Positions 13,780 to 62,780 of a stretch of DNA of 64,000 nt are shown here, piece by piece. The number at the start of each line of letters is the position of its first letter. The first letter of the stretch is position 1. The stretch comes from a bacterium. GTDB taxonomy: Bacteria > Vulcanimicrobiota > Xenobia > Xenobiales > Xenobiaceae. A program made the translations under genes and the position numbers. Location of the stretch: positions 2,282-66,281 of the forward strand of contig JAFTAM010000176.1 in NCBI GenBank assembly GCA_017458675.1, written 5' to 3'. The notes beneath the pieces are model-generated. The model had not been told where the DNA came from, searched no databases, and saw only the letters and a program-made list of their open reading frames with translations.

Positions 13780-13786
13780 GGTAAAA

Positions 13787-15331
13787 ATGTCTGAACATAA
13801 ATCCGGCCGCTCTTATATGCGCAGCCTGTGGCTGAACCTGCTCTTCGGCTTGGTTTTGGCTTTTGCTTTTCAGACTCCGCTTTGGGCCGCTCCTTCGGAT
13901 AATCCCGAAGCTCCCCTAACTAATCAGGACGCCCGGCCGGCCGCTTCCGCTCAAGCAGATACGGACGGCTCCGTTTCGGCTCAATCCGAGCCGCGCAGGC
14001 CTTCGGCCCGGCCCTCCCGCCGCCACAGGCCCAGAAACATGAGCGGAGCGCCCTCTCAGGTGAGGCGCGGCGCCCGTCCCGAGCATCAGAGAAGAGACAG
14101 AAAGCAGCTGCACGACTCTCACCGCCGAGCCGAAAGAGATCACGCCGCTTCCACGGCCAAAGAGGTCGGCTCCTTCTCGGAAACGATGAGCGTACTGTGG
14201 AAATCGACCGGCCTTTCGGCCTTCTGCACGGGAGACGGCTACAAAAACCTGATTATGATCGGCGTCAGTCTGGTGCTTATCTATCTGGCCATAGCCAAGG
14301 GCTTTGAGCCTCTGCTGCTCCTGCCCATCGGCATAGGCGGCCTGCTCTCCAATATTCCCAACGCGGGAATCGCCGAAGAGGGCGGCTTCCTATACTACAT
14401 TTACGAGTTCGGCATCGACAAGGGCATCTTCCCTCTGCTGATCTTCATGGGCGTAGGCGCAATGACCGACTTCGGCCCCCTGATCGCCAACCCGCGGACC
14501 GCTCTGCTTGGCGGCGCCGCTCAGTTCGGCATCTTCTTCTCCCTGATAGGCGCTTTGGTGCTGTCTGAGTACATCCCCGGCATAAACTTCAACCTGCAGG
14601 ACGCCGCCAGCATCGGCATCATCGGCGGCGCCGACGGTCCCACGGCCATCTTCCTGACCAGCCGTCTATCCCCGCGCCTGCTGGGTTCCATAGCCGTGGC
14701 CGCCTACTCGTACATGGCTCTGGTTCCCATCATCCAGCCTCCCATCATGAAGGCCCTGACCACCGAAGAAGAGCGCAATATCGTCATGAAGCAGCTGCGC
14801 CCGGTCTCCAAGACCGAAAAGATCATCTTCCCCATTACGGTGATCTTGCTGTGCGCTCTGCTGCTGCCCTCGGCCGCTCCTCTGATCGGCTGCCTGATGT
14901 TCGGCAACCTGGCCCGCGAATGCGGCGCGGTCAACCGCCTCTCCGATACCATGCAGAACGCTCTGTGCAACATCGTCACCATTCTGCTGGGTACGACCGT
15001 AGGTTCCAAGCTGGCCGCCGACAAGTTCCTGACCCCCGAGACCCTAGGCATCCTGCTTCTGGGCCTGGTGGCCTTCTGCGTAGGCACCGCCGCGGGCGTG
15101 CTTCTGGCTAAGCTGATGAACAAGTTTACCAAAGACCCGATCAACCCGCTGATCGGTGCCGCCGGCGTTTCCGCCGTTCCCATGGCGGCCCGCGTGGTCA
15201 ACGGCGTGGGTCTGGAGACCAACCCCCGCAACTTCCTGCTCATGCACGCTATGGGCCCCAACGTCTCCGGCGTTATCGGCTCGGCCGTAGCGGCAGGTAT
15301 TCTGCTGGCCATGCTGGGCGGCGGCTTCTGA
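13787..15331 (+). CDS. oadB: Sodium-ion-translocating decarboxylase beta subunit (OadB/GcdB/MmdB family), with an unusual ~130-aa N-terminal extension
   Basis: The core from ~14186 (MSVLWKS...[28 protein letters not shown], ...[15 protein letters not shown]) matches beta-subunit signatures. The frame is open back to the ATG at 13787 (GAGG-type RBS, 8 nt after the oadA stop). That extension encodes a signal/TM-like helix plus a basic disordered stretch. The true start (13787 vs 14186) is uncertain. Confidence 0.75.
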
Positions 15332-45946: not shown

Positions 45947-46051
45947 CCGATACCACCCTGTTTTAAGGCTCGGAGCTTAAGCCGCAGCTGCTGTCCGAGC
46001 CGTTTTCTGTTTTACAGAATAATTCAAAATAATTAAACGGACCATCAGAAC

Positions 46052-49000
46052 ATGTCAGATAATCACTGCGATATAGCTATAGTCGGAATGGGACTGCACT
46101 TTCCCGGCGCGGACAGTCCCGAACAGTATTGGAAAGCTCTGCAGAGAGGCGAAGATCTCGCCCGCCCCATGGATGAAAAGAGACGCAAGGTTTCCCTAAA
46201 CGGCCTGATCAGTCCACAGACCAAAGCCGACGCTATGCGCTGCGACAGGGGATATTTTTTAAACGCTCTGCCCACGCCTCAGCAGCTTGATCTTCCCGAG
46301 GGAACAGACCCTCTTTTTGTTTTGGCATTAAGTACGGCGGAGCAGGCCTTAAAGGACGCCGGCAAGCTGCCGTCGGAACAGACCGGCGTCATTATGGCCT
46401 CCATCGCCCTGCCCACCGATACCACCTCGGCCCTGAGCGAAAGCACGCTGGGACGCAGCTTTGCCGAGAGCCTGCAGGCCAAGCTGCCGCCGGATAAAGC
46501 CTCGGCCGTCTCACCCGCCGAACTGCTGCCCTGCGAATATACTTTCCTCAGCAGCGTCTCCGACAGCAGCGAACAGGTTAAAGCTCTGAACAATTACCCG
46601 GTCGGACTTCCGGCTCAGCTGATCGCCTCCCGTTTCAGCCTGGGACTGGGAGCTTACACTTTAGACGCGGCCTGCGCCTCCTCGCTGGTAGCTATCGAGC
46701 TGGCCTGCCGGGAACTGCGCAGCGGGCGCGCCGAGGCCATGTTGGCCGGCGGCCTCTCCCGCCCCGACTGCCTCTACACTCAAATGGGCTTTTCCGCCCT
46801 CCACGCCCTCTCGCCCAGCGGCGCATGCTCTCCTTTTGACAAAAAAGCCGACGGACTTATGGTCGGCGAAGGCTGCGGTCTGGTCGTTCTGAAACGCCTG
46901 AAAGACGCCGAACGCAGCGGCGACAAAATTTACGGAGTCATTAAAGGAACAGGTCTTTCCAACGACATCGAAGGCAGTCTGGTGGCCCCGGCCAACGAGG
47001 GGCAGATCCGCTGCCTCCGGGACGCCTATCAAATCTGCGGCCTGAAGCCCTGGGATATAGACTTTATCGAATGCCACGGAACCGGCACACCGGTAGGCGA
47101 CAGCATTGAGTTCAAAAGCCTGCAGACTCTCTGGGAAGGAGCTCCCGAAAGCAGCCGCTGCCAGCTCCGCTCCGTCAAATCCATGCTGGGCCATTTATTG
47201 ACCGCCGCCGGTTCCGCCGGCTTAATCAGAGTGCTCTTAAACCTGCAGAAGGGGCAGATCACGCCGCAGGTCAACTTCAATGAAGCGGGCATACCTCTGA
47301 AAGAGAGCCATTTTGAAATATCCAATCAGTCCGTATCCTGGCCGAAAAAGGCCGAGGCTCCCCGCCGGGCCGCCGTCAGCGGCTTCGGCTTCGGCGGCAT
47401 CAACGCCCATTTAATTATCGAAGAATATCTGCCTCAGACAGCCTGCGAAGTCAACAGCGCGGCAGACGCACGGGCAACCGCTTCCTCCGCGCCCGCCTCT
47501 GCAGAAGAATCTGAAAACGGCGAAGAAGCGGCCGCCATTATCGGAATGGCCTGCCGCTTAGGCCAAATCGGCAGCATTCGCGAACTGGCCGGCGCTTTGT
47601 TGGACGGAAATTTTGAAAATGCAAAAATTTCGCCGGAGCCGTCCGCTCAGACATGCGAAAAATCCCGTCAGGGCGGCGCTTTCCTGAACAAGGTCGACAT
47701 ACCTATAGGGCGCTTCCGCATCCCTCCCGCCGATCTGCCCTCCATTCTGCCTCAGCAGTCCCTGCTTTTAAATACGGCCGCCGAGGCTATGCTCGACGCC
47801 GGTCAGCCCCTGCGCCTGCAGCGCGAGAGAGCCGCTGCGGTTATCGGCATAAATCTCGACTTAAATTCCACAAATTTCAATCTGCGCTGGCTGTTAAAAG
47901 ACAAAGCTGAAATCTGGGCGCAGAATTTAGGCTTAGACGAAAATGAAGCCAAGAGATGGCAGGAGGCCCTCAAGGATGAAATCTCCGAGCCCCTGGATGC
48001 GGTAAAAACTATCGGCGCTTTAGGCAGCATCGCAGCCAGCCGCGCCGCCCGCGAATTCCGTTTCGGCGGATGCTCTTTTACGGTGTCTTCCCAGGAGCTG
48101 TCCGGCTTTGACGCGCTGCAGATAGGCGCAGAGGCTCTGCTGAACCGCCGTCAGGATTTAATATTAGTCGGCTCAATAGACCTTCAGGGAGATCCGCGCC
48201 TGGCCTCCTGCCGCTTAAAAGACGAACCCATGCCCGAAAAATACGGAGAAGGGTCCTGCTGCCTGGTTTTAAAGAGGTACAGCGACGCCGTAAAGGACGG
48301 AGACCACATTTATGCGCTCATTAAAGGCTTGGCCAAAGCTGGCGCGGCCGCCCCGGAGAAAGACTCCTATACCGCTTTGGAAACGGCTTTGCGGCAGGCC
48401 TGTGAATACTCAGGAACACCGGCCGAAGACATTGCCTATCTGGAAACGGTCAACGGGCAATATCTCAGTCAGGGTCCCCAGAGCGCCTGTCAGACCCTGC
48501 GCCGCGTCTTGGACAGAGGGACCAAACCTCTGAGCGCGGGCAGCATTGAGGATTACGTCGGCCATAACGGCGCAAATTCCTTTACAGCCTCCCTGATCAA
48601 AACCGCCTTATGTCTCGACCAGGAGCTCTGGCCCGCCTCCAGACATTTTGACAGACTCTGCGGAGACGCAAACGATTGGCGCGGCAGTCGCTTTACCGTA
48701 CAGAAAACTTCATCTTTCTGGTTCAGAAACCGAGCTGAGGGGCCGCGGCGGGCCTTAGTCTGCGGGCGAGCCTACCCCGGTCAGTATGCCGCCGCCGTCT
48801 TAGAAGAACATTTTTCCGACGCTTACAGACCTCTGGCCGCTCCGCAGCTGCAGATCGGGATCTGGCCCTTCTTCGGCGAAAACGCCCAGGCGATAACCGC
48901 CAAACTGTCGGCGGTCCTGGAAAAAACTAAAGAGCTGCAGTCCCTGTCTGCGTCGGCTTCAGAGCAAAGCCGCCTGCTCCGGAACTTATGCCTGGATAAT

Positions 49001-52000
49001 TACCGCAGGGAAAAGGAAGAAGGAGCATCCCGCCTGTGTCTGGCCATAGCCAGCGACAGAAAAAACTCCGCTCCCCTCGCGGAATTCCAAAAACAGCTGG
49101 AAACAGCTCTGCAACATCTGCAGACCTCGCCCGAACAGGAACTGCGCCAGAATTCAATATTCTACAGCGCCGAGCCGCTGGCAAAATCCGGAAAAACAGC
49201 CTTTGTCTATCCCGGTTCAGGCGCAAATTTCTTAGGTTTGGGGCGCGAATTCGCTCTCAATTTCCTGCCTCTCATGCATCGCTTCGACCGCGAAAATCTG
49301 TATATGGCCGGCGAATTTGCCGCTAAATACAATCAGCCTCTGCGCCTGGACTGGTCTGAAGGCTGGCAGCAGAGAGCCGTACAGGAGCTGCAGGCCGACA
49401 CTCATCATATGATGTCCAGCCAGGTGAGCTTCGCCATGCTGACCACTGATATCGCGCGCTCTCTGGGTATAGAGCCGAACTGCGCCATAGGCTACAGCCT
49501 GGGCGAATCCTCGGCCCTCTTCTCTCTGCGGGCCTGGCCGGACCGCGATAAGATGTATCTGCGCATGGAGGGCTCCGATCTCTTCCGGGAGAAACTTTCC
49601 GGCAAATGCACGGCCGCCCGTCAGGCCTGGCACATTCCCGAAAACGCTCCCTTCAGTTGGAGCGCCGCCCTCTTGCCCGTACCGGCCGATAAGGTTAAAG
49701 AGGCGCTCAAGAATGTTAAAAACGCGCGTCTGCTGATTATCAATACCGACAAAGAGTGCGTAGTCGGCGGAACTCCCGAAGGCATTGACGAACTTTGCGC
49801 TCTGCTGCATACCAAAGCCATTAAAGTCAGCGGCGTAGATACCGTACACTGCGACTGTCTGGAGCCTGCGGCTGAAGAATATTGGCATATGCACCATCTG
49901 CCCTGCCAGCCTCTGCCCGGGGTTGAGTTCTACAGCGGCTGCAAAAACTGCGCATATCCTCTTACTTCAGAAAATATCGCCGACTCAATCGTCTCCCACG
50001 GACGGTACGGTTTTGATTATACAAAAACCATTCGCCGCGCCTGGGAGGACGGGGCCCGCATATTCCTTGAGATGGGACCGGGCTCTTCCTGCGCCCGCAT
50101 GATCCGCAGTATACTGCGCGGCAAACCACATTTTGCCATTAGCCTGAGCGGACGCGGCCAATCGGAGATGTTCTCCCTGGCCCAGTTCCTGGCAGGCGTT
50201 CTGAGCCAGGGGCTCCGTCCCGATCTCAGCCCGTTCTTCCCCTCGCTGCAGGCTGAAAAAGCAGAAAAGACGACGCCCACCCTGACCGTCCCGCTGAGCC
50301 GCCGTCCCTGCGATCCTCCGCTTCCCGCTTTTCCGAAAGCTTTATTCTCTGAAGGCACAAATACCGCTATGACCCAGAAAATTAAAACCGATTTGACGCT
50401 CGAATCCGAAACTGTCCCTGTCGAAACCGCAAAACCGGCCGAAGGCAGGACGCTCACAGAAATAACTGCGCTCAGCGCTGCCGAGGCAGCTTCAGTTCCG
50501 GACGCTCCGAAATGCGTCTGCGCCGATCCTCTGCAGAGTCTGCTTATGCAGCTGGCCCGAAATTCAAATTCAGCCCACCGGAAATGGCTTGAATTTGTCG
50601 GACAAAGCGCTAAAGTCTGGGAAAACCTTCTGGTCGGTCAAAGCAGCCTTATCTCCCAGGCCGCCGCCGGCAATCCGCAGCTGTTCAGGGAGCCGCTGAC
50701 AGTTGAAAAACCGTCGGAAGCCGCGCCTGTCTTATCCCCGGCGGCCCAATTTGCGCCTCATTCAGAAGATAAAGACCAAACTCACAAAGAGCACGGCTAC
50801 ACTCATAAGCTGCACGGCATCGAAACTACCGCCGACGGAGGCTATATCTGCGGCTTTAAGCCCAGCCTGGCCCCGCCCGATCAAAAGGTATTTTTAAACC
50901 GTCGGCAGTGTCTTGAATTTGCTACCGGCAAAATCGGCGACGTCTTGGGCGAACAGTTTGCTCCCATAGACAGCTATGCCGCCCGAGTGCGCCTTCCTGC
51001 CGAACCCTTGATGCTGGTAGACCGCATCGTTTCCATTGAAGGCGAACCTCTCAGCTTAGGCGCCGGACGCATAATTACCGAGCACGACGTCGTCCCCGAT
51101 ATGTGGTATCTCGACGGAAACCGCGCCCCGGTCTTTATTTCCGTGGAAGCCGGCCAGGCCGACCTGTTCCTGTGCAGCTGGCTGGGCATAGACTTCCAGG
51201 CCAAGGGCGACAGAGTATACCGGCTTTTGGACGCCAACGTCAAATTCCACCGCGGCCTGCCTCAGCCCAGCGAAACCGTACGCTACGATATCCGCATCAA
51301 GCGCTTTATCAACCAGGGAGAGACCTGGCTCTTCTTCTTTGAATACGAAGGAACTATCAACGGCGAGACCTTCCTGACCATGCGCGATGGCTGCGCCGGC
51401 TTCTTTACTCAGGAGGAGATCCGCAATAACGGCGGCCTGGTCATGACCGAAGCCAGCCTGCGCCCTCAAAAAGGCAAAAAAGGTCCGGAAGTCCAGGAAC
51501 TGACTCCTCTGAGCGCTTCCAGCTACACGCTGGAACAGGTCGAGGCTCTGCGCCGCGGCGATCTCGAGGGCTGCTTCGGCGCCGCCTTCGCCGGTCTGAA
51601 TCTGAAGAAGCCCGTAAGCCTGCCCGCCGGTCTGCTGCGCCTGATCCACCGCATCCCCGAATGCGACCCCTTCGGAGGACGCTGGGGCCTGGGCAAGGTG
51701 GTGGCCGAAGCCGACGTCCATCCCGAAGACTGGTATCTGACCTGCCACTTCATAGACGACATGGTCATGCCGGGAACCCTGATGTACGAATGCTGCGCTC
51801 ACGCTCTGCGCTTCCTATTAACCCGCTTTGGCTGGGTAGGCGAACAGGATAAAATTGCCTATGAACCGGTTCTGGGCGTCACCGCCGTACTCAAATGCCG
51901 CGGCCCGGTTCTGCAGACCACCAAGACCGTGCGCTACCAGGTTGAGATTAAGGAAATGGGCTACAACCCGGCGCCTTACGTCATTGCCGACGCTATCATG

Positions 52001-53380
52001 TACGCCGACAACAAGCGCATAGTGGGCTTTGAAAACGTTTCCATGCAGCTGACCGGCACAACCGGCGAAGAGCTGGAAAAGCTCTGGGCTGAGCGCAGCG
52101 CTTCTTCCCAAAACGCAGCTATTGAGCCGGGAAGCGCCTGCACTGACGACTGCGGCGACCCCAGAGCCGCCAATCCCGGCGATCTCAGCCATGCCGACGG
52201 CCGTTTAGGTCTGCTGCCCGCTTATAAAAATGTTACCATGAACGGCGATCCTCTCAAGGAAGCCATATTTACCGAGGAAAACTTCCGCCAATTTTCCGTA
52301 GGTCAGCCCAGTCTGGCCTTCGGCAAGGCTTTCAGGCCCTTCGACTCCCGATTTATAGCCCGCCTGCCGGGAGTGCCCTATCAGTTCGTAAACCGCATCG
52401 TGAGCGCCGATCATCCCTTCTTGGAGACCAAAGCCGGCGGCTGGGTAGAAGCGCAGTACGACGTACCGGCCAACGCCTGGTATTTTAAGGCCAACAAGAC
52501 CGGAGCCATGCCCTTCTGCGTAATAAATGAAATCGCGCTGCAGGTCTGCGGCTGGGTCTCCAGCTATGCCGGTTCTTCCCGCCACAGCTCGGATCCCTTA
52601 TATTACCGAAATTTGGGCGGAACCTCCGTGCTGCGCAGGGAAATTACTCCTCAAACCGGACGCATAACCATTAAGGTGCGCATGACTAAATCCTCGGAAG
52701 CAGGCGGACTGATCATTCAATCCTTTGATATGAAAATCGAGCAGAAGGGTGAAGTTATATATGAAGGCACGACCACCTTCGGCTTCTTCACTAAGCAGGC
52801 CCTTGCCGATCAGGTAGGCATCCGCGGCTGGAAGAGCAGAATTTGGCTGCCCGAGCAGGAAAATACGCCCGAAAGTCTGCCGATACAGCATCCCTTAAGC
52901 CCCTATGACGAAAATCTCGAGCAAAGCGGCAGCCTGGAACTTCCCGCCAAGGCTCTGCTGATGCTGGACAGCTTCGCCTGGTATCCTCAGGGCGGAAGCA
53001 AGGGACTGGGTGCGGCGGTAGGACGCAAAAAGATCGATCCCAAGGAATGGTTCTTCACCGCCCACTTCTTCCAGGATCCGGTCATGCCCGGCTCCTTAGG
53101 CTTAGAAGCCTTCCTGCAGGTACTTAAGGCAGCCGCCTTAAAACTGTGGCCCCACTTGCAGAAGACCCATCGCTTCAGCGCTATAACCGCCGGTTCTCCT
53201 CATACCTGGCTCTACCGGGGACAGGTTACCCGCGCCAATTCCTTTACAACCGCAAGAGCTGAGATAACCGAAATCCATGACGGTCCCGAGCCGTATCTGA
53301 AGGCCCGAGGCTTCCTGCAGGCCGATGATTTAACTATTTACGAGCTTCAGGATTTCGGCATAGCTCTGCTGAAAAGCTGA
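46052..53380 (+). CDS. pfaC: PfaC-like protein with integrated acyltransferase: KS-CLF-AT-DH(FabA-like)x2
   Basis: KS motifs LDAACASSLVAIEL, ECHGTGTPVGD, KSMLGHLLTA. A second KS-like domain lacks the active Cys (chain-length factor). AT motif AIGYSLGESSALFSL (~nt 49490). Two FabA-type hotdog pairs with CHFIDDMVMPG (~nt 51740) and AHFFQDPVMPG (~nt 53060). Ends ~110 aa after the last DH. Confidence 0.9.
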   Translation: MSDNHCDIAIVGMGLHFPGADSPEQYWKALQRGEDLARPMDEKRRKVSLNGLISPQTKADAMRCDRGYFLNALPTPQQLDLPEGTDPLFVLALSTAEQALKDAGKLPSEQTGVIMASIALPTDTTSALSESTLGRSFAESLQAKLPPDKASAVSPAELLPCEYTFLSSVSDSSEQVKALNNYPVGLPAQLIASRFSLGLGAYTLDAACASSLVAIELACRELRSGRAEAMLAGGLSRPDCLYTQMGFSALHALSPSGACSPFDKKADGLMVGEGCGLVVLKRLKDAERSGDKIYGVIKGTGLSNDIEGSLVAPANEGQIRCLRDAYQICGLKPWDIDFIECHGTGTPVGDSIEFKSLQTLWEGAPESSRCQLRSVKSMLGHLLTAAGSAGLIRVLLNLQKGQITPQVNFNEAGIPLKESHFEISNQSVSWPKKAEAPRRAAVSGFGFGGINAHLIIEEYLPQTACEVNSAADARATASSAPASAEESENGEEAAAIIGMACRLGQIGSIRELAGALLDGNFENAKISPEPSAQTCEKSRQGGAFLNKVDIPIGRFRIPPADLPSILPQQSLLLNTAAEAMLDAGQPLRLQRERAAAVIGINLDLNSTNFNLRWLLKDKAEIWAQNLGLDENEAKRWQEALKDEISEPLDAVKTIGALGSIAASRAAREFRFGGCSFTVSSQELSGFDALQIGAEALLNRRQDLILVGSIDLQGDPRLASCRLKDEPMPEKYGEGSCCLVLKRYSDAVKDGDHIYALIKGLAKAGAAAPEKDSYTALETALRQACEYSGTPAEDIAYLETVNGQYLSQGPQSACQTLRRVLDRGTKPLSAGSIEDYVGHNGANSFTASLIKTALCLDQELWPASRHFDRLCGDANDWRGSRFTVQKTSSFWFRNRAEGPRRALVCGRAYPGQYAAAVLEEHFSDAYRPLAAPQLQIGIWPFFGENAQAITAKLSAVLEKTKELQSLSASASEQSRLLRNLCLDNYRREKEEGASRLCLAIASDRKNSAPLAEFQKQLETALQHLQTSPEQELRQNSIFYSAEPLAKSGKTAFVYPGSGANFLGLGREFALNFLPLMHRFDRENLYMAGEFAAKYNQPLRLDWSEGWQQRAVQELQADTHHMMSSQVSFAMLTTDIARSLGIEPNCAIGYSLGESSALFSLRAWPDRDKMYLRMEGSDLFREKLSGKCTAARQAWHIPENAPFSWSAALLPVPADKVKEALKNVKNARLLIINTDKECVVGGTPEGIDELCALLHTKAIKVSGVDTVHCDCLEPAAEEYWHMHHLPCQPLPGVEFYSGCKNCAYPLTSENIADSIVSHGRYGFDYTKTIRRAWEDGARIFLEMGPGSSCARMIRSILRGKPHFAISLSGRGQSEMFSLAQFLAGVLSQGLRPDLSPFFPSLQAEKAEKTTPTLTVPLSRRPCDPPLPAFPKALFSEGTNTAMTQKIKTDLTLESETVPVETAKPAEGRTLTEITALSAAEAASVPDAPKCVCADPLQSLLMQLARNSNSAHRKWLEFVGQSAKVWENLLVGQSSLISQAAAGNPQLFREPLTVEKPSEAAPVLSPAAQFAPHSEDKDQTHKEHGYTHKLHGIETTADGGYICGFKPSLAPPDQKVFLNRRQCLEFATGKIGDVLGEQFAPIDSYAARVRLPAEPLMLVDRIVSIEGEPLSLGAGRIITEHDVVPDMWYLDGNRAPVFISVEAGQADLFLCSWLGIDFQAKGDRVYRLLDANVKFHRGLPQPSETVRYDIRIKRFINQGETWLFFFEYEGTINGETFLTMRDGCAGFFTQEEIRNNGGLVMTEASLRPQKGKKGPEVQELTPLSASSYTLEQVEALRRGDLEGCFGAAFAGLNLKKPVSLPAGLLRLIHRIPECDPFGGRWGLGKVVAEADVHPEDWYLTCHFIDDMVMPGTLMYECCAHALRFLLTRFGWVGEQDKIAYEPVLGVTAVLKCRGPVLQTTKTVRYQVEIKEMGYNPAPYVIADAIMYADNKRIVGFENVSMQLTGTTGEELEKLWAERSASSQNAAIEPGSACTDDCGDPRAANPGDLSHADGRLGLLPAYKNVTMNGDPLKEAIFTEENFRQFSVGQPSLAFGKAFRPFDSRFIARLPGVPYQFVNRIVSADHPFLETKAGGWVEAQYDVPANAWYFKANKTGAMPFCVINEIALQVCGWVSSYAGSSRHSSDPLYYRNLGGTSVLRREITPQTGRITIKVRMTKSSEAGGLIIQSFDMKIEQKGEVIYEGTTTFGFFTKQALADQVGIRGWKSRIWLPEQENTPESLPIQHPLSPYDENLEQSGSLELPAKALLMLDSFAWYPQGGSKGLGAAVGRKKIDPKEWFFTAHFFQDPVMPGSLGLEAFLQVLKAAALKLWPHLQKTHRFSAITAGSPHTWLYRGQVTRANSFTTARAEITEIHDGPEPYLKARGFLQADDLTIYELQDFGIALLKS

Positions 53381-53489: not shown

Positions 53490-54374
53490 ATGTTTACTCC
53501 CGGTGTACCTTTCGGTCCCAACCCCTTCGGGGGTCCGTTAGGCATGGGCATGGGCGTAATAGGTCCTGCCGCTGTGCTGGCCCAGAGTTCGGCCATGACC
53601 GGAGCGGCAACCTTAGCCTATACCGTCGGCGCATTCAACACCGATATGCTGGGCGCCGCAATCTGCGCAGAAGCGCTGGGCGGTCCTCAGTTTGAATACG
53701 CCATGGGCGGTTATGCCGGCTCTATAGCCGGACAGGGAATCGGCGGTCTTTTAGGCATAGGCCTCGGTTCATATTTCGGCGGTCCGATGGGTATAATCGG
53801 CGGCGGAATGCTCGGCTCGATCTTAGGCGGAGGTATCGGCGGCGATTTGGCCAGAGATCTCTTTACTCCGGTTCCTTTCCCGCAGGACTCTTTCCCGCAG
53901 GACTCCTTCCCGCCCGGATCCTTCCCTCCGGGGTCTGTCCCGCCCGGGTCTTATCCGCATTACGGCAGCGGCCCGGTTTACACTCCAACTCCAACCCCTT
54001 CTCCCAGCACGGATACGGATAACACAAAAAAGGATAACGATTATCCTTATACTCCGCCCCCGCCGCCAGACTTTTACGGTCCCGGCCGCTTTGGCCACCA
54101 TCGCCGCCATCCCGGCGGTCCCTTCGGTCCGCGTCCGTTCCCCGGCGGTCCCTGGGGTCCCCGTCCCGGCGGACCTTACGGTCCCAGATATCCCGGCGGC
54201 TACGGCCCTCGTCCCTATCCGGGGACTAATCCCAGCACAAATCCGGGTTCTTATATTCCGCGTCCTCCTGTTCCTCCCGTGCCTCCGCGCCATAGCCGCG
54301 GTCCCGGCGGACCGGGCGGCCCCGACGGTCCTGACGGCCACGGTCCCAGACGCAGACGCGAGCTGCATTTCTAA
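53490..54374 (+). CDS. Glycine-zipper / Pro-Gly-rich small protein, paralog 1
   Basis: GGAGGATAACAAG RBS-leader. N-terminus MFTPGVPFGPNPFGGPLGMGMG. Gly-zipper hydrophobic segment GIGGLLGIGLGSYFGGPMGIIGGGMLGSILGGGIGG. C-terminal PGGPxGPRP repeats. Confidence 0.55.
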   Translation: MFTPGVPFGPNPFGGPLGMGMGVIGPAAVLAQSSAMTGAATLAYTVGAFNTDMLGAAICAEALGGPQFEYAMGGYAGSIAGQGIGGLLGIGLGSYFGGPMGIIGGGMLGSILGGGIGGDLARDLFTPVPFPQDSFPQDSFPPGSFPPGSVPPGSYPHYGSGPVYTPTPTPSPSTDTDNTKKDNDYPYTPPPPPDFYGPGRFGHHRRHPGGPFGPRPFPGGPWGPRPGGPYGPRYPGGYGPRPYPGTNPSTNPGSYIPRPPVPPVPPRHSRGPGGPGGPDGPDGHGPRRRRELHF

Positions 54375-54592: not shown

Positions 54593-55372
54593 ATGTTTAT
54601 TCCCGGTGCACCTTTTGGTCCCAATCCGTTCGGCGGTCCGTTCGGCATGGGCATGGGTATGATGGGTCCTGGCCCGCTCATGGGCGCAGGAACCGCTTTA
54701 GCCGGAGCCGCTACCCTGGCTTACGGCGTAGGCGCTCTTAACACCGCTATGCTGGGCGCCACTCTCGGCGGCGGAATGATGGGCTGCCCCCAGATGTCCA
54801 ATGGCATGGGCGGCTTTGCAGGTTCTGTCGTCGGTCAGGGAATCGGCGGACTCTTAGGCATGGGCTTAGGCTCTTCTATCGGCGGCCCTATGGGAATGGT
54901 CGGCGGCGGAATGCTCGGCTCGATCTTAGGCGGAGGTATCGGCGCCAAGATCGGTAATGACATGCAGCAGGCCAGACAGGCTTATCAGCAGCCTCCACAG
55001 CCCGGCCCCGAACCCGGCCCGGTCAGAAGCGATGAAGCTTCCAGTACCGTAGGCGACGCTCTTAAAGGCGCGGCTATCGGAGGCGCAATCGGTTTAGGCG
55101 CCGCTGCCATAGCCAACTCAGCCAGCGCCAGCTTCTTCCCGCCTCCTCCTCCGCCTCCCGGCGGTCCCTTCGGCGGTCCTTTCGGTCCCGGTCCCCGACC
55201 CGGCGGCCCCTTCGGCGGTCCCTTCGGTCCCGGTCCCCGACCCGGCGGCCCCTTCGGCGGTCCCGGTCCCCGTCCCGGCGGTCCCTTCGGCGGTCCCCAT
55301 CCTCACCACGGTCCTCATCCCGGCGGTCCCTTCGGCCCCGGTCCTCACCGCGGTCCCGGTTTTCCATTTTAA
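54593..55372 (+). CDS. Glycine-zipper / Pro-Gly-rich small protein, paralog 2
   Basis: Identical GGAGGATAACAAA leader. N-terminus MFIPGAPFGPNPFGGPFGMGMG. Same Gly-zipper block. C-terminal (GGPFGGPFGPGPRP)n. Terminator follows. Confidence 0.55.
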   Translation: MFIPGAPFGPNPFGGPFGMGMGMMGPGPLMGAGTALAGAATLAYGVGALNTAMLGATLGGGMMGCPQMSNGMGGFAGSVVGQGIGGLLGMGLGSSIGGPMGMVGGGMLGSILGGGIGAKIGNDMQQARQAYQQPPQPGPEPGPVRSDEASSTVGDALKGAAIGGAIGLGAAAIANSASASFFPPPPPPPGGPFGGPFGPGPRPGGPFGGPFGPGPRPGGPFGGPGPRPGGPFGGPHPHHGPHPGGPFGPGPHRGPGFPF

Positions 55373-55394: not shown

Positions 55395-55430
55395 GCGGCT
55401 TCTGCAGATTCGCAGAAAGCCGTTTTTTTA
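55395..55430 (+). terminator. Rho-independent terminator
   Basis: CGGCTTCTGC-loop-GCAGAAAGCCG followed by TTTTTTTATT, 20 nt after the 55372 stop. Confidence 0.65.
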
Positions 55431-55545
55431 TTGTTATTTGGCTAAACGCAGCGCCTCTCGGAGCCGGCCGGCTTACTGGCCTTAAACTTTATTTAATGAA
55501 GCTCGGGGGCGCGCCGAAGCAAAGAAGCAACGCCTATCGTCAATG

Positions 55546-55770
55546 TCGGTAAGCTAAACAAAAACTAGCTTTAAGCAGGCATGCTTAACAGAGGATTTGC
55601 CCTGCACAAAAGCGAGCGTCCGAGCCGAAGGCGCCGCGAAGCGAAATACAAATCAAAGCCGGCTCAGCGAAAACATACAGAACATGTTTGAAAGATTCTT
55701 CGCAGCGCTCTCAATGACAGAGTAAACGATTAAGAGTATAATTGTTCGCCTTATAAATACCGACCTGAGT
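55546..55770 (+). repeat. Dispersed intergenic repeat, copy B (more diverged)
   Basis: TCGGTAAGCTAAACAAAAACTAGCTTTAAGCAGG...GAAAGATTCTTCGCAGCGCTCTCAATGACAG...TTCGCCTTATAAATAC. Forms the left flank of the AT-rich island. Confidence 0.75.
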
Positions 55771-56926
55771 ACTTATACATGTCAGTTGAGGACAATAATT
55801 CTGTTCTATAATACAATAAATACAGAAATACTGTACAATAATTCAGCCGGTTTGCATTGCTGTAAGTATTATTGCACACAAAAAAATGAGGCTGGCAGCA
55901 ATCGGCACAGCCTCATATTACTCAAAATACATATTCAAATGCCGAAAATATTCAGAGTCCCTCCCGCTGCAGCATTTTGAATACATATTCTTAAAATTCC
56001 GTCAGATATCGCAGTCAACAAAATGAAGCTTATTATACTGCAATTCCAAGGTAAGGTCGTCATCTCTGATAATGCATAAGCTCTGTTTTCCCCGTATTAT
56101 GAGCTATGCACAGCAGAGACTACAAAAACGGTATTTCTGAAATATCTTCAGCATAATAACATACTCTTCCCCTAAGAGAGACAATAAAAGTATTATTGCC
56201 ATTATTTGCTGAAGAATTAGAAAAGAAACTCAGCCCGCCGCCATTATTGTTCTGCAATAATGCCCAGAAATAACTGATTGGAACAGATAATGACATAAAA
56301 GATACAGCATTTATTGCTAAACTGACAATAAAAACGGTTAAGGTATGACCTTCTTTTCAACACTAATTGATATCATCTCCATTTCGGATATGACTCATTG
56401 TTTGTTTTCATTCCTTTTCACTAAACTGACCTGTGAAATACTGTCAGCAATATTTCACCTATGACAGCTGCGTTTAATTATCCCCCACGACAGCTGGTCA
56501 CGTTGTCACAAAATCGGCCTTAAGAATGAAAACCCGTCTCAGAATTCGATAAAGCATCCCTATAGACAATCACAAATGATACTGATAATACAATAAAGAT
56601 AAACTCGTCAGGTAAAACTAATCTGTCGCGAACAATAATACACTCAGAACATCAAATAAGCCTTGCAATAACCTGTCAATACGCCTGATAACGACATTAT
56701 GACAATATAATGCTTCCATCTTCCCCACCCTCTTACTGGTCTGGACATCAATTAATTGCTGTCCTTTTGTAGTATTATAATACCACAGCAGACAATAATA
56801 ATCAACACCTATTTATATTATTGTATAACATTTTTGGTACTTTCTTCAGACCATGATCGAAGCGTGATAACATAATACTGACGCAGCTCCGCTATTTTAA
56901 ACCTGCCAGATAAAAGATACTCACTG
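55771..56926. other. AT-rich (about one-third GC) gene-less island flanked by direct copies of the dispersed repeat
   Basis: Sampled lines give ~30-35 percent GC against a ~58 percent background. No ORF of 60 aa or more except the weak 55786-55980. Contains hairpins and dyads (55886-55916; GTGAAATA-n9-TATTTCAC at 56436-56460; duplicated GACAGCTG at 56464-56498). Confidence 0.6.
55879..55916 (-). terminator. Orphan rho-independent terminator (minus strand) inside the AT-rich island
   Basis: Minus-strand reading shows ATGAGGCTG-loop13-CAGCCTCAT followed by TTTTTTT. No ORF of 60 aa or more on the minus strand upstream of it (55920-56900). Confidence 0.5.
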
Positions 56927-57179
56927 CCGGTAAGTTAAGAAAAACAGGCTTTAAGCATACACGCTTAATAAAGGTTTTCTTTGACGCGTACGCGGAGATT
57001 CGAGCACAGCTTCGCGCGGAGCGGCAGCGACAAAGAAAACCGGCATAACGAAAACATGCAGAACATGATTGAAAGATTCTTCGCTGCGCTCTCAATGATA
57101 AGGGAAACACTCTTAAGCATATACAGACAAGCTTTTATGCCATTTTCGGCAAAATCTTGCCTTAACTATATAACATTGG
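56927..57179 (+). repeat. Dispersed intergenic repeat, copy C
   Basis: CCGGTAAGTTAAGAAAAACAGGCTTTAAGCATAC...GAAAGATTCTTCGCTGCGCTCTCAATGATAAG...CTTGCCTTAACTATATAACATTGG. Forms the right flank of the island, ~115 nt upstream of the HAD gene start. Confidence 0.85.
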
Positions 57180-57292
57180 TCTTATGCGGCAAGTTATTTT
57201 TAGCCAAGCTAACATTTTCATCAGTTAAGTTTTCCATAAATACCGGATATGTAGTAAAATACATATCCATTTAAACGGAGCGGAAAAAAACA

Positions 57293-58190: not shown

Positions 58191-59576
58191 TTACTCCCTC
58201 TCTGAAATACAGAAGGGCGCCCAGGAGCTAAGAATCAAAATACAGGCCGTCGGGATTATTCCCCAATAGAAACTGGAACTTTTGCCGCCCAGAAAGGCAA
58301 AGACCGCAAAGCCCAACAGGAAGCCGCCTAAAACCAAGCTCAAACCTTTGGGCAGATATTTTAAGGAAAGCAGAGACAGAACAAATAAAACCGGTCCCAC
58401 AATCGCCCAGCAGGCATAGAAGGGCTCGGCGTACTGCAGCATAGTCAGCAGAAACTGCCAGCCGCCGCTGCCGGAATCGGGATCGAACAAACCGCATGGC
58501 AGGAGCTCCGGCAGGCAGCTGAATACGGTGAAAAGGTGAACTGCCAGGAAAGTCAGGCCTATAGCCAAGGGCAAACACGTCCAGCCTTTTTTCTCCCATT
58601 TTTCCGCATAAGCCGCTGCAGGCAGCAGCAGAGCCGGCAAAAGCATGAATTCTCTGGTTATCGCAGCCATTATAAGGCAAAGAGAAGCTCCCAGGCTATG
58701 TCGGCGCACAATAAAGGGCAGGCTGAAGATCACGAAAAACATAGCCCAGTATTCGGTCATAAGCATCAGCCAGGAGGAAACCCCATAAAAGAAAAGCGGG
58801 CCTATAGCCGCGGCGGCCGCATAGGCCGGCAGAGAGCCGATAATGGCTTCTCCGGCCCGCCAGACGCTGTACATAGCCAGAGCTGAAAAGATCAGAAATA
58901 AGTAGGTAACTCCCATTCCCCAGCCCCAGGTGCAGTACTTCCAAAGCATAAAACAGGAGGGCAGACGGTAACCGAAAGCAAAGGGCGGCGCTATTCCGAC
59001 ATTGCCGCTCAGCAGACAGTTCTCAGCTATTGCCGAATAGACAGACTGCCCTTCGCAGACCCTGTAATACATCTGTCTGTATAAAGAGCCGTCATTGCCG
59101 ACCGGCCGCCTGCCTGAATCGATCTGCATAGCCGCGGAAAAACCGGGATTCAGGCAGAGGCTCTGCAGAGCCAGCAAAAGGGCCGTCGCTCCCAAAACTC
59201 CCAGCGCAAAGCGGCGCTCTTTAAACAGCGGTTTTTCTCCCCATAGGCTCCATAAAAGACCGGCCGCCAATGCAGCCAAAGTGAGGCTGAGCGTATGAGC
59301 ATCCAAAAAACCGTTTGTCAAACCGGCGGTAACCGCATCCCGGCCCAGCAGCAGAGAAGTAAAATCGCTCCTGACCAGCAGAAAGGCGCACAGAGCATTG
59401 ATCAGAGCGGCTTTCAAAGGTTTATGCCGGGTTTCAGGCATCAAGGAGTACAAAAACCAAGCGCATATGAAAGGTACCAGCCACACCGCAGGCTGCCACA
59501 CCGAAGCGCTCAAGGCGCACCAAAGCAGCAGCGTCCCTAGTGTTGAACCTAAAAATTTTAGACTTTCCGAGCTCAT
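58191..59576 (-). CDS. Polytopic integral membrane protein (possible GT-C-type glycosyltransferase)
   Basis: 461 aa with more than 10 hydrophobic helices. The family call is tentative. Confidence 0.4.
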   Translation of the reverse strand: MSSESLKFLGSTLGTLLLWCALSASVWQPAVWLVPFICAWFLYSLMPETRHKPLKAALINALCAFLLVRSDFTSLLLGRDAVTAGLTNGFLDAHTLSLTLAALAAGLLWSLWGEKPLFKERRFALGVLGATALLLALQSLCLNPGFSAAMQIDSGRRPVGNDGSLYRQMYYRVCEGQSVYSAIAENCLLSGNVGIAPPFAFGYRLPSCFMLWKYCTWGWGMGVTYLFLIFSALAMYSVWRAGEAIIGSLPAYAAAAAIGPLFFYGVSSWLMLMTEYWAMFFVIFSLPFIVRRHSLGASLCLIMAAITREFMLLPALLLPAAAYAEKWEKKGWTCLPLAIGLTFLAVHLFTVFSCLPELLPCGLFDPDSGSGGWQFLLTMLQYAEPFYACWAIVGPVLFVLSLLSLKYLPKGLSLVLGGFLLGFAVFAFLGGKSSSFYWGIIPTACILILSSWAPFCISERE

Positions 59577-59589: not shown

Positions 59590-60279
59590 TTAAACCGATC
59601 TGTGCACTTCTAAACCGTTGACGCACATAGCCGGCTGAGGACGGCAGGGACAGATATATTCGCAGGCCCCGCAGCCCATACAGCGCTCGGGATCGACTAC
59701 AATCTGCACCTTTTTGGGATCGCTCTCCAAAGGGACTGCGCTTATGGCGCCGTTGGGACAGATCTTCTGGCAGGCCTTGCAGGAGGCTCCGCGGCTGTTC
59801 AGGCAAATCTGACCGTTCCATTCCGCCAAGCCCACCTGCAGAGCCGTCTTGCGGGAAGCGCTCAGGGGCTGAATGGCCCCGGCGGGACACACCTGCGAGC
59901 ATTTTACGCATTCGGGACGACAGTAGCCGTTTTCAAAAGACATGGCCGGCTGTTCTAAATTTAAAAGTCCGTATTTAGCGTCTATTACCTTATGTGAAGC
60001 CTTTACGTTCAGAACTCGGTTGGGACAGCTGCTCACACAGAGCTGACAGCCGACGCAGCGCCGGTGAAAGTTAGCCAGACTCTGCGCGCCGAAGGGAACT
60101 ATATAGCATTTTCTTTCCGGATTGACTCTGGCCGGCCGGCCGCTCGCCTTCTTCTCCTCAGCCAAAGCCTCGCCGCTTATGCCCGCCGCCAGCAGAGAGC
60201 CTACAACCGTACCCAGGAAGCCGCGCCTGCTGCAGCCGCTTTCGTGTTCACTGTATGAGCTTTTTTCTTTATTGTCCAT
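59590..60279 (-). CDS. NapG/MauM-like periplasmic ferredoxin with Tat signal and four [4Fe-4S] motifs
   Basis: Tat motif SRRGFLGTVVGSLLAAG. Cluster motifs CVGCQLCVSSCP, CRPECVKCSQVCP, CKACQKICP, CMGCGACEYICP. Confidence 0.7.
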   Translation of the reverse strand: MDNKEKSSYSEHESGCSRRGFLGTVVGSLLAAGISGEALAEEKKASGRPARVNPERKCYIVPFGAQSLANFHRRCVGCQLCVSSCPNRVLNVKASHKVIDAKYGLLNLEQPAMSFENGYCRPECVKCSQVCPAGAIQPLSASRKTALQVGLAEWNGQICLNSRGASCKACQKICPNGAISAVPLESDPKKVQIVVDPERCMGCGACEYICPCRPQPAMCVNGLEVHRSV

Positions 60280-60304
60280 AGTTTCTTCTCCCCTCTGCAG
60301 CGAG

Positions 60305-61153
60305 CTATTGCTCCTCAGCTTCGGCAGCGGCTCTGCCGGACCTTGCCGCCAGGCCTATAGCCTTTTTAGGACATGCCTCCAGGCAGTTGAAGCATTTTAC
60401 GCACGAAGCGTTATTTACCGAAAAATTAGGAACGTCGATACAGCTTACCTTACATCCCCTGGCGCAGGAACCGCATTTAATACATTTTTCTTTGTCGATG
60501 GCTATAACCTTATAAGACTTAGCCGCGAAAAATCCCAGAAAAGTTCCTACCGGGCAGACTTTCCTGCACCAGAAGCGCTTTTGCCATAAGGCCGCCGCCA
60601 GCGCAAAGAGGCCGATAATTAAAGCCGCCGCCGTCGATAAAAGGCTCTGCGAAGCATATTTAACCGGAACCAGGCCAAGACTCTCGCCCAGCCAGGAGAC
60701 CAGCAGATTATTGATAAATGCGGCGGCAGGGTTAAATATATCATTCATCAGACGTCCAAATATAGCGTAGGGAGAAAGCAGCGAAAAGATGATATTTATT
60801 CCCAGCGCCAGAGAAGCTATGTAGAAAATCAATATGACTAAACGCAGCCGGCAGCCGGAATCGTCATATTTGCCGTCAAAGCTGCGCCGTTTTTTCGGAA
60901 CCAGACGAGCGGCCAAATCCTGCAGAATGCCCAAAGGACAGACAAAAGAGCAGTAAACGCGCCCCAGCAGAAAAGTTATGATTAGCCATATTAAGGCTGC
61001 AAAGCTCAAAGCCAGCACAGACTCGGTAAACTGGATCCCGGGCAGCCAGCTCAGCCATTTCACCGCCCAGCCGCTGTTGGCAAAATTGGCAAATAAACAT
61101 ACAAAGCCCAGCAGCACCACAACAGCCGATGCTATTCTCAATTTTTTCAGCAT
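60305..61153 (-). CDS. NapH/MauN-family membrane-bound ferredoxin-type (quinol dehydrogenase) subunit
   Basis: Four TM helices. Two CxxCP motifs (RVYCSFVCPLG, RFWCRKVCPVG). Two C-terminal ferredoxin motifs (CIKCGSCARGC, CVKCFNCLEACP). Confidence 0.7.
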   Translation of the reverse strand: MLKKLRIASAVVVLLGFVCLFANFANSGWAVKWLSWLPGIQFTESVLALSFAALIWLIITFLLGRVYCSFVCPLGILQDLAARLVPKKRRSFDGKYDDSGCRLRLVILIFYIASLALGINIIFSLLSPYAIFGRLMNDIFNPAAAFINNLLVSWLGESLGLVPVKYASQSLLSTAAALIIGLFALAAALWQKRFWCRKVCPVGTFLGFFAAKSYKVIAIDKEKCIKCGSCARGCKVSCIDVPNFSVNNASCVKCFNCLEACPKKAIGLAARSGRAAAEAEEQ

Positions 61154-61194
61154 ACTGCACTAACCTCCGCCTTCTGAGAACCGACATCCGCGCC

Positions 61195-62592
61195 TCAGCT
61201 GCGGCTGCGTCTGATATTCTCGGTAAAATGCTGAATATTTTCCAGCTCGGAAGGGATATTGATATTCTGCGGACACTTGCGCAGACAGGCGCCGCAGCCT
61301 ATGCAGCGATCCGCCTGGGCCGACGGATCGAAACTGCGCTCATAGCCGCCCAGATACTCATTCCTGGCTTTTACATAATTGGGATCGAACGAGCTCTGCG
61401 GCATTTCCGCTTCCACCACGCATTTGTTGTAATGCCTGAACAGTCCGGGGATGTCAACTCCGAAAGGACAGGGCATACAGTACTCGCAGCCGGTGCAGGG
61501 TATGCGCTTGGCCTTGTCGCTCACTCCCAGAGCCCGCTGCAGAGTCTTGTGCTCACCGTCTGACAAGGGTTCAAAAGGCGCAAAGGTTTGCAGATTATCC
61601 TCCAGATGCTCTATGTAAGTCATCCCGCTCAGAGTCGTCAGAACGTTGGGCAGAGAGCCGCAGAAGCGGAAGGCCCAGGAGGCCACGCTGCGCTGAGGCG
61701 CCGCTTCCTTGAGAATGGCGTTGCCGCCGCCCGGCAGACTGGCCAATGCGCCGCCCAAAAGCGGCTCCATGATCGTAACCTGAATATTGCGGGCGGCCAG
61801 CTTATCGTACATGCCCTTGGCCGTCACCGGATGCTTGGCGTCATTATTGGCCGGTCCCAGCTCCCAGTCGTGATAATTGAGCTGAATCTGCACAAAGTCC
61901 CAGTCAACGGGCAGCGAGAGCATATAGTCAAAGAGCTCGGAATTGCCGTGGAACGACCAGCCCAGGCACCTTATGCGTCCCTGCTTTTTCTGCTCCAGCA
62001 AATAATCCAGCACGCCGTATTCTTCATAGACCCGTCTATATTTTTCCATATTATTGACGTTGTGCAGCAGATAATAGTCAATATAATCGGTCTGCAGATT
62101 GGCCAGCTGTTCTTCAAAGATGCGCTTGGCATGATCCAGGCTTTCGACTATGCGTCCCGGCATTTTGGTAGCCAGATAAAAGCTTTTGCGAGGATATTTC
62201 TTCAAGGCCCGGCCCACAAAGGCTTCGGATTTGCCGCCGTGATAGACGTAGGCGGTATCGTAATAGTTTACGCCGCCGGCATAGGCCGTATCGATCAGGC
62301 GCTGTCCCATCTCCTCGTCAATCTCGCCCGCCTTGGCGCCGTTAGTAAGAGTAGGGAAACGCATACAGCCGTAACCCAGCAAAGAGACTTTATCCTGATT
62401 GCGCTTATTGAGGCGGTAGGCCATCTCACCCAGCTTTTTGCGTATCAAGGCCGCTTTTTCAGCCGTATTTAAAGCCTCTGCCGCCTTATCGGAACTGCAG
62501 CCGGCAAACAGGGAAGCGCCGGCCAAAGCCGCTCCTCCGCCCAGCCATTCCAGAAACTGGCGTTTGCTGATTTTATTTTCAGAGCCGTCCAT
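61195..62592 (-). CDS. Aldo/keto reductase fused to C-terminal 2x[4Fe-4S] ferredoxin domain, with Tat-type signal and lipobox
   Basis: KRQFLEWLGGGAALAGASLFAGCSS (twin-basic KR variant plus L-F-A-G-C lipobox). AKR core YYDTAYVYHGGKSE. C-terminus CTGCEYCMPCP and CIGCGACLRKCP. Confidence 0.75.
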   Translation of the reverse strand: MDGSENKISKRQFLEWLGGGAALAGASLFAGCSSDKAAEALNTAEKAALIRKKLGEMAYRLNKRNQDKVSLLGYGCMRFPTLTNGAKAGEIDEEMGQRLIDTAYAGGVNYYDTAYVYHGGKSEAFVGRALKKYPRKSFYLATKMPGRIVESLDHAKRIFEEQLANLQTDYIDYYLLHNVNNMEKYRRVYEEYGVLDYLLEQKKQGRIRCLGWSFHGNSELFDYMLSLPVDWDFVQIQLNYHDWELGPANNDAKHPVTAKGMYDKLAARNIQVTIMEPLLGGALASLPGGGNAILKEAAPQRSVASWAFRFCGSLPNVLTTLSGMTYIEHLEDNLQTFAPFEPLSDGEHKTLQRALGVSDKAKRIPCTGCEYCMPCPFGVDIPGLFRHYNKCVVEAEMPQSSFDPNYVKARNEYLGGYERSFDPSAQADRCIGCGACLRKCPQNINIPSELENIQHFTENIRRSRS

Positions 62593-62780
62593 TCTCGCCT
62601 CCCTTTAATCTGCAGTTTACAAAAACAGCCTCCTCAATCTGTGATTATAATAATGCCAGCAGAATAAGGAGACTGTCGCAACAAAATATAAAATATAGAT
62701 ACCTTGAATTTACGTCATTACCTGCCGATAAATACAGAATAATTCGCTATTGTTCACAATAACATTGATATTATGCTAGC

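Follow-up and report, generated by a model that had tools for sequence, protein, structure and literature searches.

The 64,000 nucleotide (nt) stretch of DNA analysed here (the window), which derives from a bacterium of the Xenobiaceae (assembly GCA_017458675.1, contig JAFTAM010000176.1, positions 2,282 to 66,281 of the forward strand), encodes on its minus strand an iron-sulfur (Fe-S) aldo/keto reductase (AKR) with a predicted export signal, followed by a NapH-like membrane protein and a NapG-like polyferredoxin (Table 1), and the conservation of this gene set in other bacteria leads us to regard the three products as very probably one functional module whose members are wired together. The open reading frame (ORF) list places the three genes on the minus strand and bears out the first-pass annotation of this DNA as to their coordinates, their shared orientation and the upstream position of the AKR gene. 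That annotation had also suggested that NapGH-like proteins pass quinol electrons to the AKR; the three-gene module which this suggestion presupposes is upheld by 62 of the 63 loci described below, while the quinol as source and the flow of electrons towards the AKR are carried over from NapGH by analogy only.

Conserved linkage of the AKR with NapH- and NapG-like genes

The linkage was assessed from both sides. On the AKR side, with each species represented by a single genome, the scan yielded 80 loci, among which a long form (an AKR with an N-terminal extension) was distinguished from a short form (a tblastn match starting at about residue 50-70 of the query). By tblastn, NapH-like and NapG-like genes were found directly beside the AKR in 15 of the 16 long-form loci (L003-L018; Thermoguttaceae, Bacteroidales, Muribaculaceae and Alistipes), and in none of the approximately 60 short-form loci, which are mostly from Firmicutes and Methanosarcina or other archaea; a few of the short-form AKRs do carry a twin-arginine (RR) signal. 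Clustering of all neighbouring ORFs at 21 long-form loci returned the H/G polyferredoxin as the sole conserved neighbour family (20 of the 21 loci, the exception being L008), with no third conserved family beside it and the AKR. On the NapH side an alignment of 15 H parts (A2) was used to scan metagenomes, and among the best 80 of at least 583 relatives 63 loci had enough flanking sequence to be read. An Fe-S AKR is adjacent in 61 of these, and an exported AKR of any form in 62. The relatives of the napGH-like pair are thus linked to the exported AKR itself and not to a different reductase, and the outcome that the first-pass annotation had named as refuting its reading did not occur. Of the two loci without an Fe-S AKR, L107 has a Tat (twin-arginine translocation) signal-bearing AKR without a ferredoxin domain directly after the polyferredoxin, leaving L124 as the single true exception. 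The L107 cassette (2270-7135) comprises genes for FeoB, a DUF362 protein, a polyferredoxin of 567 amino acids, the AKR of 390 amino acids and a DUF6599 protein, and a DUF362 gene also follows the polyferredoxin in Nitratidesulfovibrio (L084).

The order of the genes is AKR-H-G in the window and in the Thermoguttaceae, and H-G-AKR in the Bacteroidales. In most loci H and G form a single ORF of about 490 codons, the two parts being joined at an internal RRxFL motif; this fused state is found in most Bacteroidales, including Bacteroides, in Nitratidesulfovibrio and at one Thermoguttaceae locus, and in L005-L016, L083 and L084 the single polypeptide has the internal twin-arginine motif ahead of the fifth transmembrane (TM) helix. 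The separate H and G genes of the window, 25 nt apart, therefore represent the minority form. Recurrence of the arrangement across phyla places it far beyond chance, and its rearranged gene order and fusions across at least three phyla constitute strong evidence for a functional, and probably a physical, unit. The cassette is present on dozens of independent human gut metagenome contigs and is common in Bacteroidales of the human gut and the rumen, while cultured carriers include Bacteroides sp. OF04-15BH, an isolate labelled B. ovatus, B. luti and Nitratidesulfovibrio. A Muribaculaceae clade of Fe-S AKRs of 446 amino acids with an RR signal (L059, 5628-11621, and L019) has no NapH/G-like neighbour, and is flanked by genes for a ROK protein, a mannose-6-phosphate isomerase, a protein of 301 amino acids and a major facilitator superfamily (MFS) transporter.

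The NapH-like and NapG-like proteins

Hydrophobic helices of the NapH-like protein were located at residues 7-25, 46-64, 105-123 and 171-189, and ferredoxin motifs (CxxCxxCxxxC) at residues 224 and 251. The four helices and two ferredoxin motifs are as first annotated, whereas the two membrane-proximal motifs described there as CxxCP are in fact of the Cx3CP type (CSFVCP at 68 and CRKVCP at 196). Positive-inside counts predict that the N-terminus, both Cx3CP motifs and the C-terminal Fe-S domain are cytoplasmic, and the corresponding Fe-S domain and Cx3CP motifs of the H-G fusions are likewise predicted to be cytoplasmic. The same topology is reported for Escherichia coli NapH (Brondijk 2004, as cited in PMC5449189). 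In the NapG-like protein the twin-arginine signal and the four [4Fe-4S] motifs noted earlier were both recovered: after SRRGFL comes a hydrophobic segment that ends in ALA, and the cysteine clusters are at residues 75, 120, 159 and 200.

The best NCBIfam matches of the two proteins are the NapH/MauN (napH) and mauM_napG models, and in architecture the two resemble NapGH, but neither protein reaches the curated cutoffs of these families. The NapH-like protein scores 83.8 bits against a cutoff of 213 for TIGR02163 and 71.2 against 234 for NF007013, and the NapG-like protein 62.7 against 178.9 for TIGR00397 and 52.7 against 269 for NF007012. With scores so far below the cutoffs, the pair is to be seen as related to NapGH rather than as true NapGH. 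It shares with NapGH of E. coli and Wolinella succinogenes, with NosGH and with MauMN the combination of a four-helix H-type protein, which has two Cx3CP motifs and a cytoplasmic 2x[4Fe-4S] domain, and a Tat-exported G-type protein with four [4Fe-4S] clusters; it differs from these systems in having no napA, napB, napC, nosZ or mau genes nearby and in having an Fe-S AKR as its conserved partner.

The absence of a nitrate reductase catalytic subunit from the vicinity, reported in the first-pass annotation, holds over a larger region. No molybdopterin enzyme is encoded by the ten largest ORFs of the window, among which are Pfa-like polyketide/polyunsaturated fatty acid synthases, oxaloacetate decarboxylase subunits and an S41 peptidase. 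A metagenome contig with an identical AKR (L001) runs 5.8 kb past the end of the window, through an ATP-grasp gene, a peptidase M3 gene and one partial gene without a recorded family, and no molybdopterin enzyme is on record in these 5.8 kb. A true Nap system with napA lying outside the window was rejected on the content of this flank together with the linkage to the AKR seen from both sides.

The AKR and its predicted export signal

Residues 72-353 of the AKR match Pfam Aldo_ket_red (PF00248; E 6e-35, 121.2 bits against a cutoff of 24) and residues 366-443 match Fer4_9 (E 1e-10), the latter domain carrying the motifs C366xxCxxCxxCP and C430xxCxxCxxxCP, whose eight cysteines (366, 369, 372, 375, 430, 433, 436 and 440) are invariant in homologues. 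The AlphaFold2 model, computed with 40 homologues, has a predicted local distance difference test score of 83.4, and solved structures of NAD(P)H-dependent AKRs match its barrel (6kik, 1ynp and others; Foldseek E approximately 1e-14, TM-score to the target at most 0.82), with L-galactose dehydrogenases among the structural neighbours. Sequence and fold searches of the PDB returned plain AKR barrels only, and no solved structure with the combined barrel and ferredoxin architecture. Residues D112, Y117, K143 and H177, which do not vary among 40 long-form homologues and 63 others, align to the catalytic tetrad D43/Y48/K77/H110 of a manually entered AKR1B1 sequence. In the same alignment the cofactor-pocket positions equivalent to Q183, N272, P211 and L212 of AKR1B1 are kept, and N160, Y209 and S210 are replaced by F214, M275 and E276, replacements that are invariant across the family. 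The signature S-F-H, M-E, S-G-M and the eight cysteines are common to the cytoplasmic and the exported forms, and the chemistry should therefore be family-wide, with only the compartment and the electron partner differing.

Classical AKRs are soluble cytoplasmic enzymes which operate on free NAD(P)H. The window AKR shares with such enzymes (AKR11C1, 1ynp/1ynq; Tm1743, 6kik/5dan; AKR1B1) the (alpha/beta)8 barrel and the Asp-Tyr-Lys-His tetrad, but is predicted to be exported and probably lipid-anchored, and to possess two [4Fe-4S] sites.

The N-terminus of the AKR reads MDGSENKISKRQFLEWLGGGAALAGASLFAGC and includes SKRQFLEWLGGGAALAGASLFAGC32. The twin-arginine-type motif SKRQFLE, in which lysine replaces the first arginine of the S/T-R-R-x-F-L-K consensus, is followed by a hydrophobic region and a lipobox-like sequence, so that the domain content, the KR-type Tat motif and the lipobox first described were all recovered, and the export signal is a family-wide feature. 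Natural KR-type Tat signals exist, an example being that of Salmonella TtrB. Nearly all of the 120 best homologues have a canonical RRxFLK at the position of the window KRQFL, and many of them have a cysteine after the hydrophobic stretch (LAGC, FTGC, FYGC); the KR variant is shared by the two closest relatives, namely P0001 (89% identical, with KRQFL and a canonical LAGC lipobox) and P0003. When compared with the Pfam TAT_signal model (cutoff 22.7 bits), this N-terminus scores 19.8 bits (E 7.5e-4), and an in silico K10R change lifts the score to 24.8 bits; among the controls a Bacteroides homologue scored 23.5 bits and a cytoplasmic short form gave no score. The same model misses the SRRGFL signal of the NapG-like protein, likely a false negative, and must as a consequence be considered a weak and insensitive predictor. 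A tatC gene lies directly upstream of or beside the polyferredoxin-AKR cassette at 17 loci belonging to 13 independent groups (among them L015, L101, L112, L121, L134, L145 and L151), and at L008, where the long-form AKR is without a polyferredoxin, tatC (9682-10434) directly follows the AKR gene. Export of the predicted protein via the Tat pathway is well supported by these comparisons, and it is probably lipid-anchored at Cys32. A strong Shine-Dalgarno sequence, GGGAGG, is located 7 nt ahead of the AKR ATG. Translation from Met57, the residue at which the cytoplasmic short forms begin in the alignment, would yield a cytoplasmic AKR; it was rejected on the position of this sequence, there being no Shine-Dalgarno sequence at a usable spacing before Met57, and on family conservation.

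Proposed mechanism and alternative explanations

On the reading that we favour, the AKR would fold and receive its clusters in the cytoplasm, be exported by the Tat pathway through its KR-variant signal and be anchored at Cys32. The three proteins would then form a physical complex in which electrons might pass from the four-helix NapH-like protein to the Tat-exported NapG-like protein with its four [4Fe-4S] clusters, onwards to the two clusters of the AKR and finally to the active site of the barrel. By analogy with NapGH and NosGH, the direction would be from membrane menaquinol through the AKR to a substrate, and the AKR may accordingly reduce, independently of nicotinamide, a carbonyl-type compound that is activated and of higher potential. 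We hold this full account of an extracytoplasmic, quinol-driven reductive AKR module with moderate confidence at best.

Several observations weigh against it. With H and G scores so far short of the family cutoffs, a quinol dehydrogenase function is an extrapolation. The midpoint potential (E0') of menaquinol is approximately -74 mV and that of ordinary aldehydes and ketones approximately -200 mV, and menaquinol is consequently too weak a donor for ordinary carbonyls; this mismatch calls for an activated substrate (a quinone, dicarbonyl, enone or similar), for the dehydrogenase direction or for a low-potential cytoplasmic donor. AKR chemistry is a hydride transfer from nicotinamide and Fe-S clusters deliver single electrons; as no flavin domain is present, the last step to the substrate would have to be unlike classical hydride transfer. 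The cofactor pocket is partly kept and partly changed, two nicotinamide-contacting positions being occupied by the invariant Phe and Met. The KR motif falls just below the Pfam cutoff, a smaller clade of Tat-signal Fe-S AKRs occurs without a polyferredoxin (L019, L059), and the NapH-side test, confined to the best-matching relatives, describes the nearest clade only.

Among the alternatives, the one that fares best concerns the role of the module and is compatible with the proposed wiring: the system may serve to take up or salvage a micronutrient or a small molecule resembling a cofactor, which would be imported by a TonB-dependent receptor, redox-modified by the AKR and passed to an inner-membrane transporter. 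We regard this as possible, if on the unlikely side. In the Bacteroidales the module is often followed by a DUF1893/TM1506 gene, by a TonB-dependent receptor of the BtuB/siderophore/hemin type (15 loci, 11 groups) and by a gene for a protein of 169 amino acids with five TM helices (20 loci), which weakly resembles the S-components of energy-coupling factor (ECF) transporters. DUF1893/TM1506 lies beside the AKR in 51 of the loci examined, at least 15 of which are short-form Firmicutes loci. Such neighbourhoods, observed at L020, L022, L027-L029, L033, L039, L042, L044, L045, L047-L049, L054, L074 and many Bacteroidales loci, are hints that at least some members of the AKR family process an imported small molecule, and the association of TM1506, AKR, the five-helix protein and TonB was noted previously (Iyer, Zhang, Rogozin and Aravind 2011, NAR, PMC3239186). 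On the other hand, these accessory genes accompany only a minority of the module loci, the ECF similarity (E 0.0026) is below the cutoff, and the genes are absent from the closest relative of the locus (L085), from the Thermoguttaceae loci and from the window, where tblastn searches for the TM1506/DUF1893 and five-helix genes gave no match over the whole length.

A second alternative reverses the direction of electron flow. The AKR would be a periplasmic dehydrogenase, oxidising an alcohol, lactol or sugar and passing the electrons via the NapG-like and NapH-like proteins to menaquinone, for instance to feed fumarate respiration. Established potentials make the oxidation of an alcohol or aldose by menaquinone exergonic and the reverse reaction not; many AKRs act as dehydrogenases, L-galactose dehydrogenases are among the structural neighbours of the window AKR, and the related Tat-signal clade mentioned above is located among sugar genes (ROK, mannose-6-phosphate isomerase, MFS). 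Against this stand the cytoplasmic short forms, which share the catalytic pocket and are largely from Firmicutes, where a ferredoxin-fed reductase is more plausible; many Firmicutes are without quinones. Moreover, every characterised module of the NapH/NapG type (NapGH, NosGH) oxidises quinol (literature cited in PMC5449189). We judge this direction to be unlikely, and slightly less probable than a role in uptake or salvage.

Somewhat more doubtful again is the proposal that the NapH/G-like pair is not a quinol dehydrogenase but a transmembrane conduit, fed by cytoplasmic ferredoxin, flavodoxin or a similar carrier via the two [4Fe-4S] clusters of the NapH-like protein and delivering low-potential electrons to the periplasmic AKR. 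Such a route would resolve the thermodynamic difficulty with ordinary carbonyls, and it is in keeping with the predicted cytoplasmic location of the NapH-like Fe-S domain and of both Cx3CP motifs, in the fusions as in the window, and with the consideration that the cytoplasmic short-form AKRs, having the same pocket, must use a soluble low-potential partner. The hydrophobic core, however, has no evident cofactor across it, its helices being without haem ligands and the distance exceeding tunnelling range, and no gene for a cytoplasmic donor is conserved beside the module. Finally, that the adjacency is fortuitous, with ferredoxin genes that serve another purpose and an AKR that starts internally and works in the cytoplasm as a conventional NAD(P)H enzyme, is strongly disfavoured and highly improbable, for although Met57 aligns with the short-form start and the KR motif is non-canonical and sub-threshold in Pfam, the linkage is conserved among phyla whichever side it is examined from and includes gene fusions, the Shine-Dalgarno sequence serves the long start with none at a usable distance before Met57, and homologues have RR at the aligned position.

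Relation to known systems and significance

Three elements of the exported AKR module are already known, namely NapGH-type modules, the NapH-NapG fusions with dual Sec/Tat targeting (PMC5449189) and the association of TM1506 with AKRs (PMC3239186). A NapH-NapG fusion, termed a 'polytopic polyferredoxin', was shown experimentally to be dual-targeted by Sec and Tat (Tooke et al. 2017, eLife, PMC5449189). The relatives of the window H and G proteins are the same fusion, with the twin-arginine motif before the fifth TM helix and the same topology logic, whereas the window encodes the two parts by separate genes; no catalytic partner for the polyferredoxin is mentioned in the paper ('aldo' occurs 0 times in it). 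TM1506, for its part, has been proposed to be an NAD- or ADP-ribose-binding protein, and the TM1506-AKR operons described in the same work (PMC3239186) contain the same AKR family with its C-terminal Cys-rich domain, an association which was recovered independently here. That domain was read there as a rubredoxin-like zinc ribbon, while the Pfam match and the CxxCxxCxxxCP spacing found here indicate two [4Fe-4S] clusters, and neither Tat export nor a NapH/G-like partner is mentioned in that study. The furfural AKR Cbei_3974 of C. beijerinckii (PMC3681630) was considered as a possible short-form member and dropped, the paper being silent on an Fe-S domain. No description of the AKR-polyferredoxin pairing or of Tat export of the AKR subfamily was found in the searchable literature, COG1453 included, and the database names of the homologues are all generic ('aldo/keto reductase'). 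The AKR as the conserved partner of orphan polyferredoxins thus appears to be new, as does a NapGH-type redox module with this class of catalytic subunit, and the electron supply that it implies is unprecedented for AKRs.

Exported Fe-S AKRs with polyferredoxins are widespread in gut Bacteroidales, Thermoguttaceae and Desulfovibrionaceae. It is tempting to see in these AKRs and their NapH/G-type polyferredoxins an unrecognised class of extracytoplasmic redox enzymes performing AKR chemistry with electrons from the membrane in place of free NAD(P)H, a tentative view to which we give rather less than even weight. Were it to hold, the module would represent either a terminal reductase of a new type, and with it a class of respiratory electron acceptor not known before, or a dehydrogenase that reduces quinone and is likewise new, and would entail a catalytic mechanism new to the AKR superfamily. 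An Fe-S AKR plugged into membrane electron transfer would extend both that superfamily and the list of partners of NapGH-type proteins, and a defined function could bring to light an electron sink, an electron source or a step of nutrient processing that has gone unnoticed in the gut. The cassette also connects two findings published apart from each other, on orphan Sec/Tat polyferredoxins and on TM1506-AKR operons, and its presence in cultured carriers makes the module directly testable.

Surroundings of the module in the window

The three module genes are the first of four co-oriented ORFs, which are separated, in order, by 41, 25 and 13 nt; the spacer upstream of the AKR gene separates it from an ATP-grasp gene further upstream. 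Scans of the 57.9-64 kb region for sigma-70 promoters and terminators gave counts no higher than expected from shuffled sequence and are uninformative on co-transcription, and a search of the whole window against Rfam returned zero matches above the gathering score. The fourth ORF, a polytopic membrane protein of 461 amino acids, has no match in Pfam or NCBIfam even at E = 10. It is present in a second assembly of the same species (L002) and missing from all other module loci, including the closest syntenic relative, L085, which shares the order peptidase M3, ATP-grasp, AKR, H, G and HAD with the window; being absent from L085 and not conserved with the module, the gene is not counted as part of it. 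The L002 metagenome assembly, from the same organism, has the NapG-like gene divided into two ORFs of 63 and 117 amino acids (5090-5790), and the overlapping tblastn match suggests that the split is due to a frameshift or an assembly error.

Table 1. Features of the AKR module and of the Pfa-like gene cluster in the window
Feature	Positions	Strand	Description	Basis
Upstream spacer of AKR gene	62593..62780	-	188 nt, AT-rich, probable promoter region	sequence reading
AKR signal peptide	62497..62592	-	predicted, residues 1-32; KR-type Tat motif SKRQFL (nt 62551-62568), hydrophobic region, lipobox-like LFAGC, Cys32	sequence reading, homologues
Fe-S aldo/keto reductase	61195..62592	-	465 amino acids, putative catalytic subunit	Pfam Aldo_ket_red and Fer4_9
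Ferredoxin-like domain of AKR	61264..61497	-	C-terminal, 2x[4Fe-4S], residues 366-443	Fer4_9, Cys motifs
NapH-like membrane Fe-S protein	60305..61153	-	282 amino acids, 4 TM helices, two Cx3CP, C-terminal 2x[4Fe-4S], predicted cytoplasmic termini	Pfam Fer4_5 x2, Fer4; hydropathy
NapG-like 4x[4Fe-4S] protein	59590..60279	-	229 amino acids, predicted periplasmic, Tat signal SRRGFL (~nt 60160-60279)	motif analysis
Polytopic membrane protein	58191..59576	-	461 amino acids, co-oriented, 13 nt downstream of NapG-like gene, module membership doubtful	ORF list
NMO/FabD-insert enoyl-reductase-like protein	37345-38994	+	Pfa-like cluster	
KS-AT-ACPx3-KR-DH protein	38981-45946	+	2321 amino acids, Pfa-like cluster	
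KS-KS-FabAx4 protein	46052-53380	+	2442 amino acids, Pfa-like cluster	

Elsewhere in the window, positions 37345-53380 of the plus strand are occupied by a Pfa-like polyunsaturated fatty acid/polyketide synthase cluster of three genes (Table 1). Directly after these polyketide synthase genes lie genes for two paralogous Gly/Pro-rich proteins of 294 and 259 amino acids (53490-54374 and 54593-55372, plus strand), which have near-identical N-termini (MF.PG.PFGPNPFGGP.GMGMG) and PGGPFGP-type repeats. The adjoining 1.9 kb (55400-57290) has a GC content of 0.37-0.40 as compared to approximately 0.55 elsewhere, with no ORF of more than 97 amino acids and no Rfam match, and may represent foreign DNA or an extended non-coding region. 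A biotin/lipoate ligase-family gene (10377-11291, minus strand) adjoins genes for an alpha-like subunit (11869-13779) and the Na+-pumping beta subunit (13772-15331) of oxaloacetate decarboxylase.

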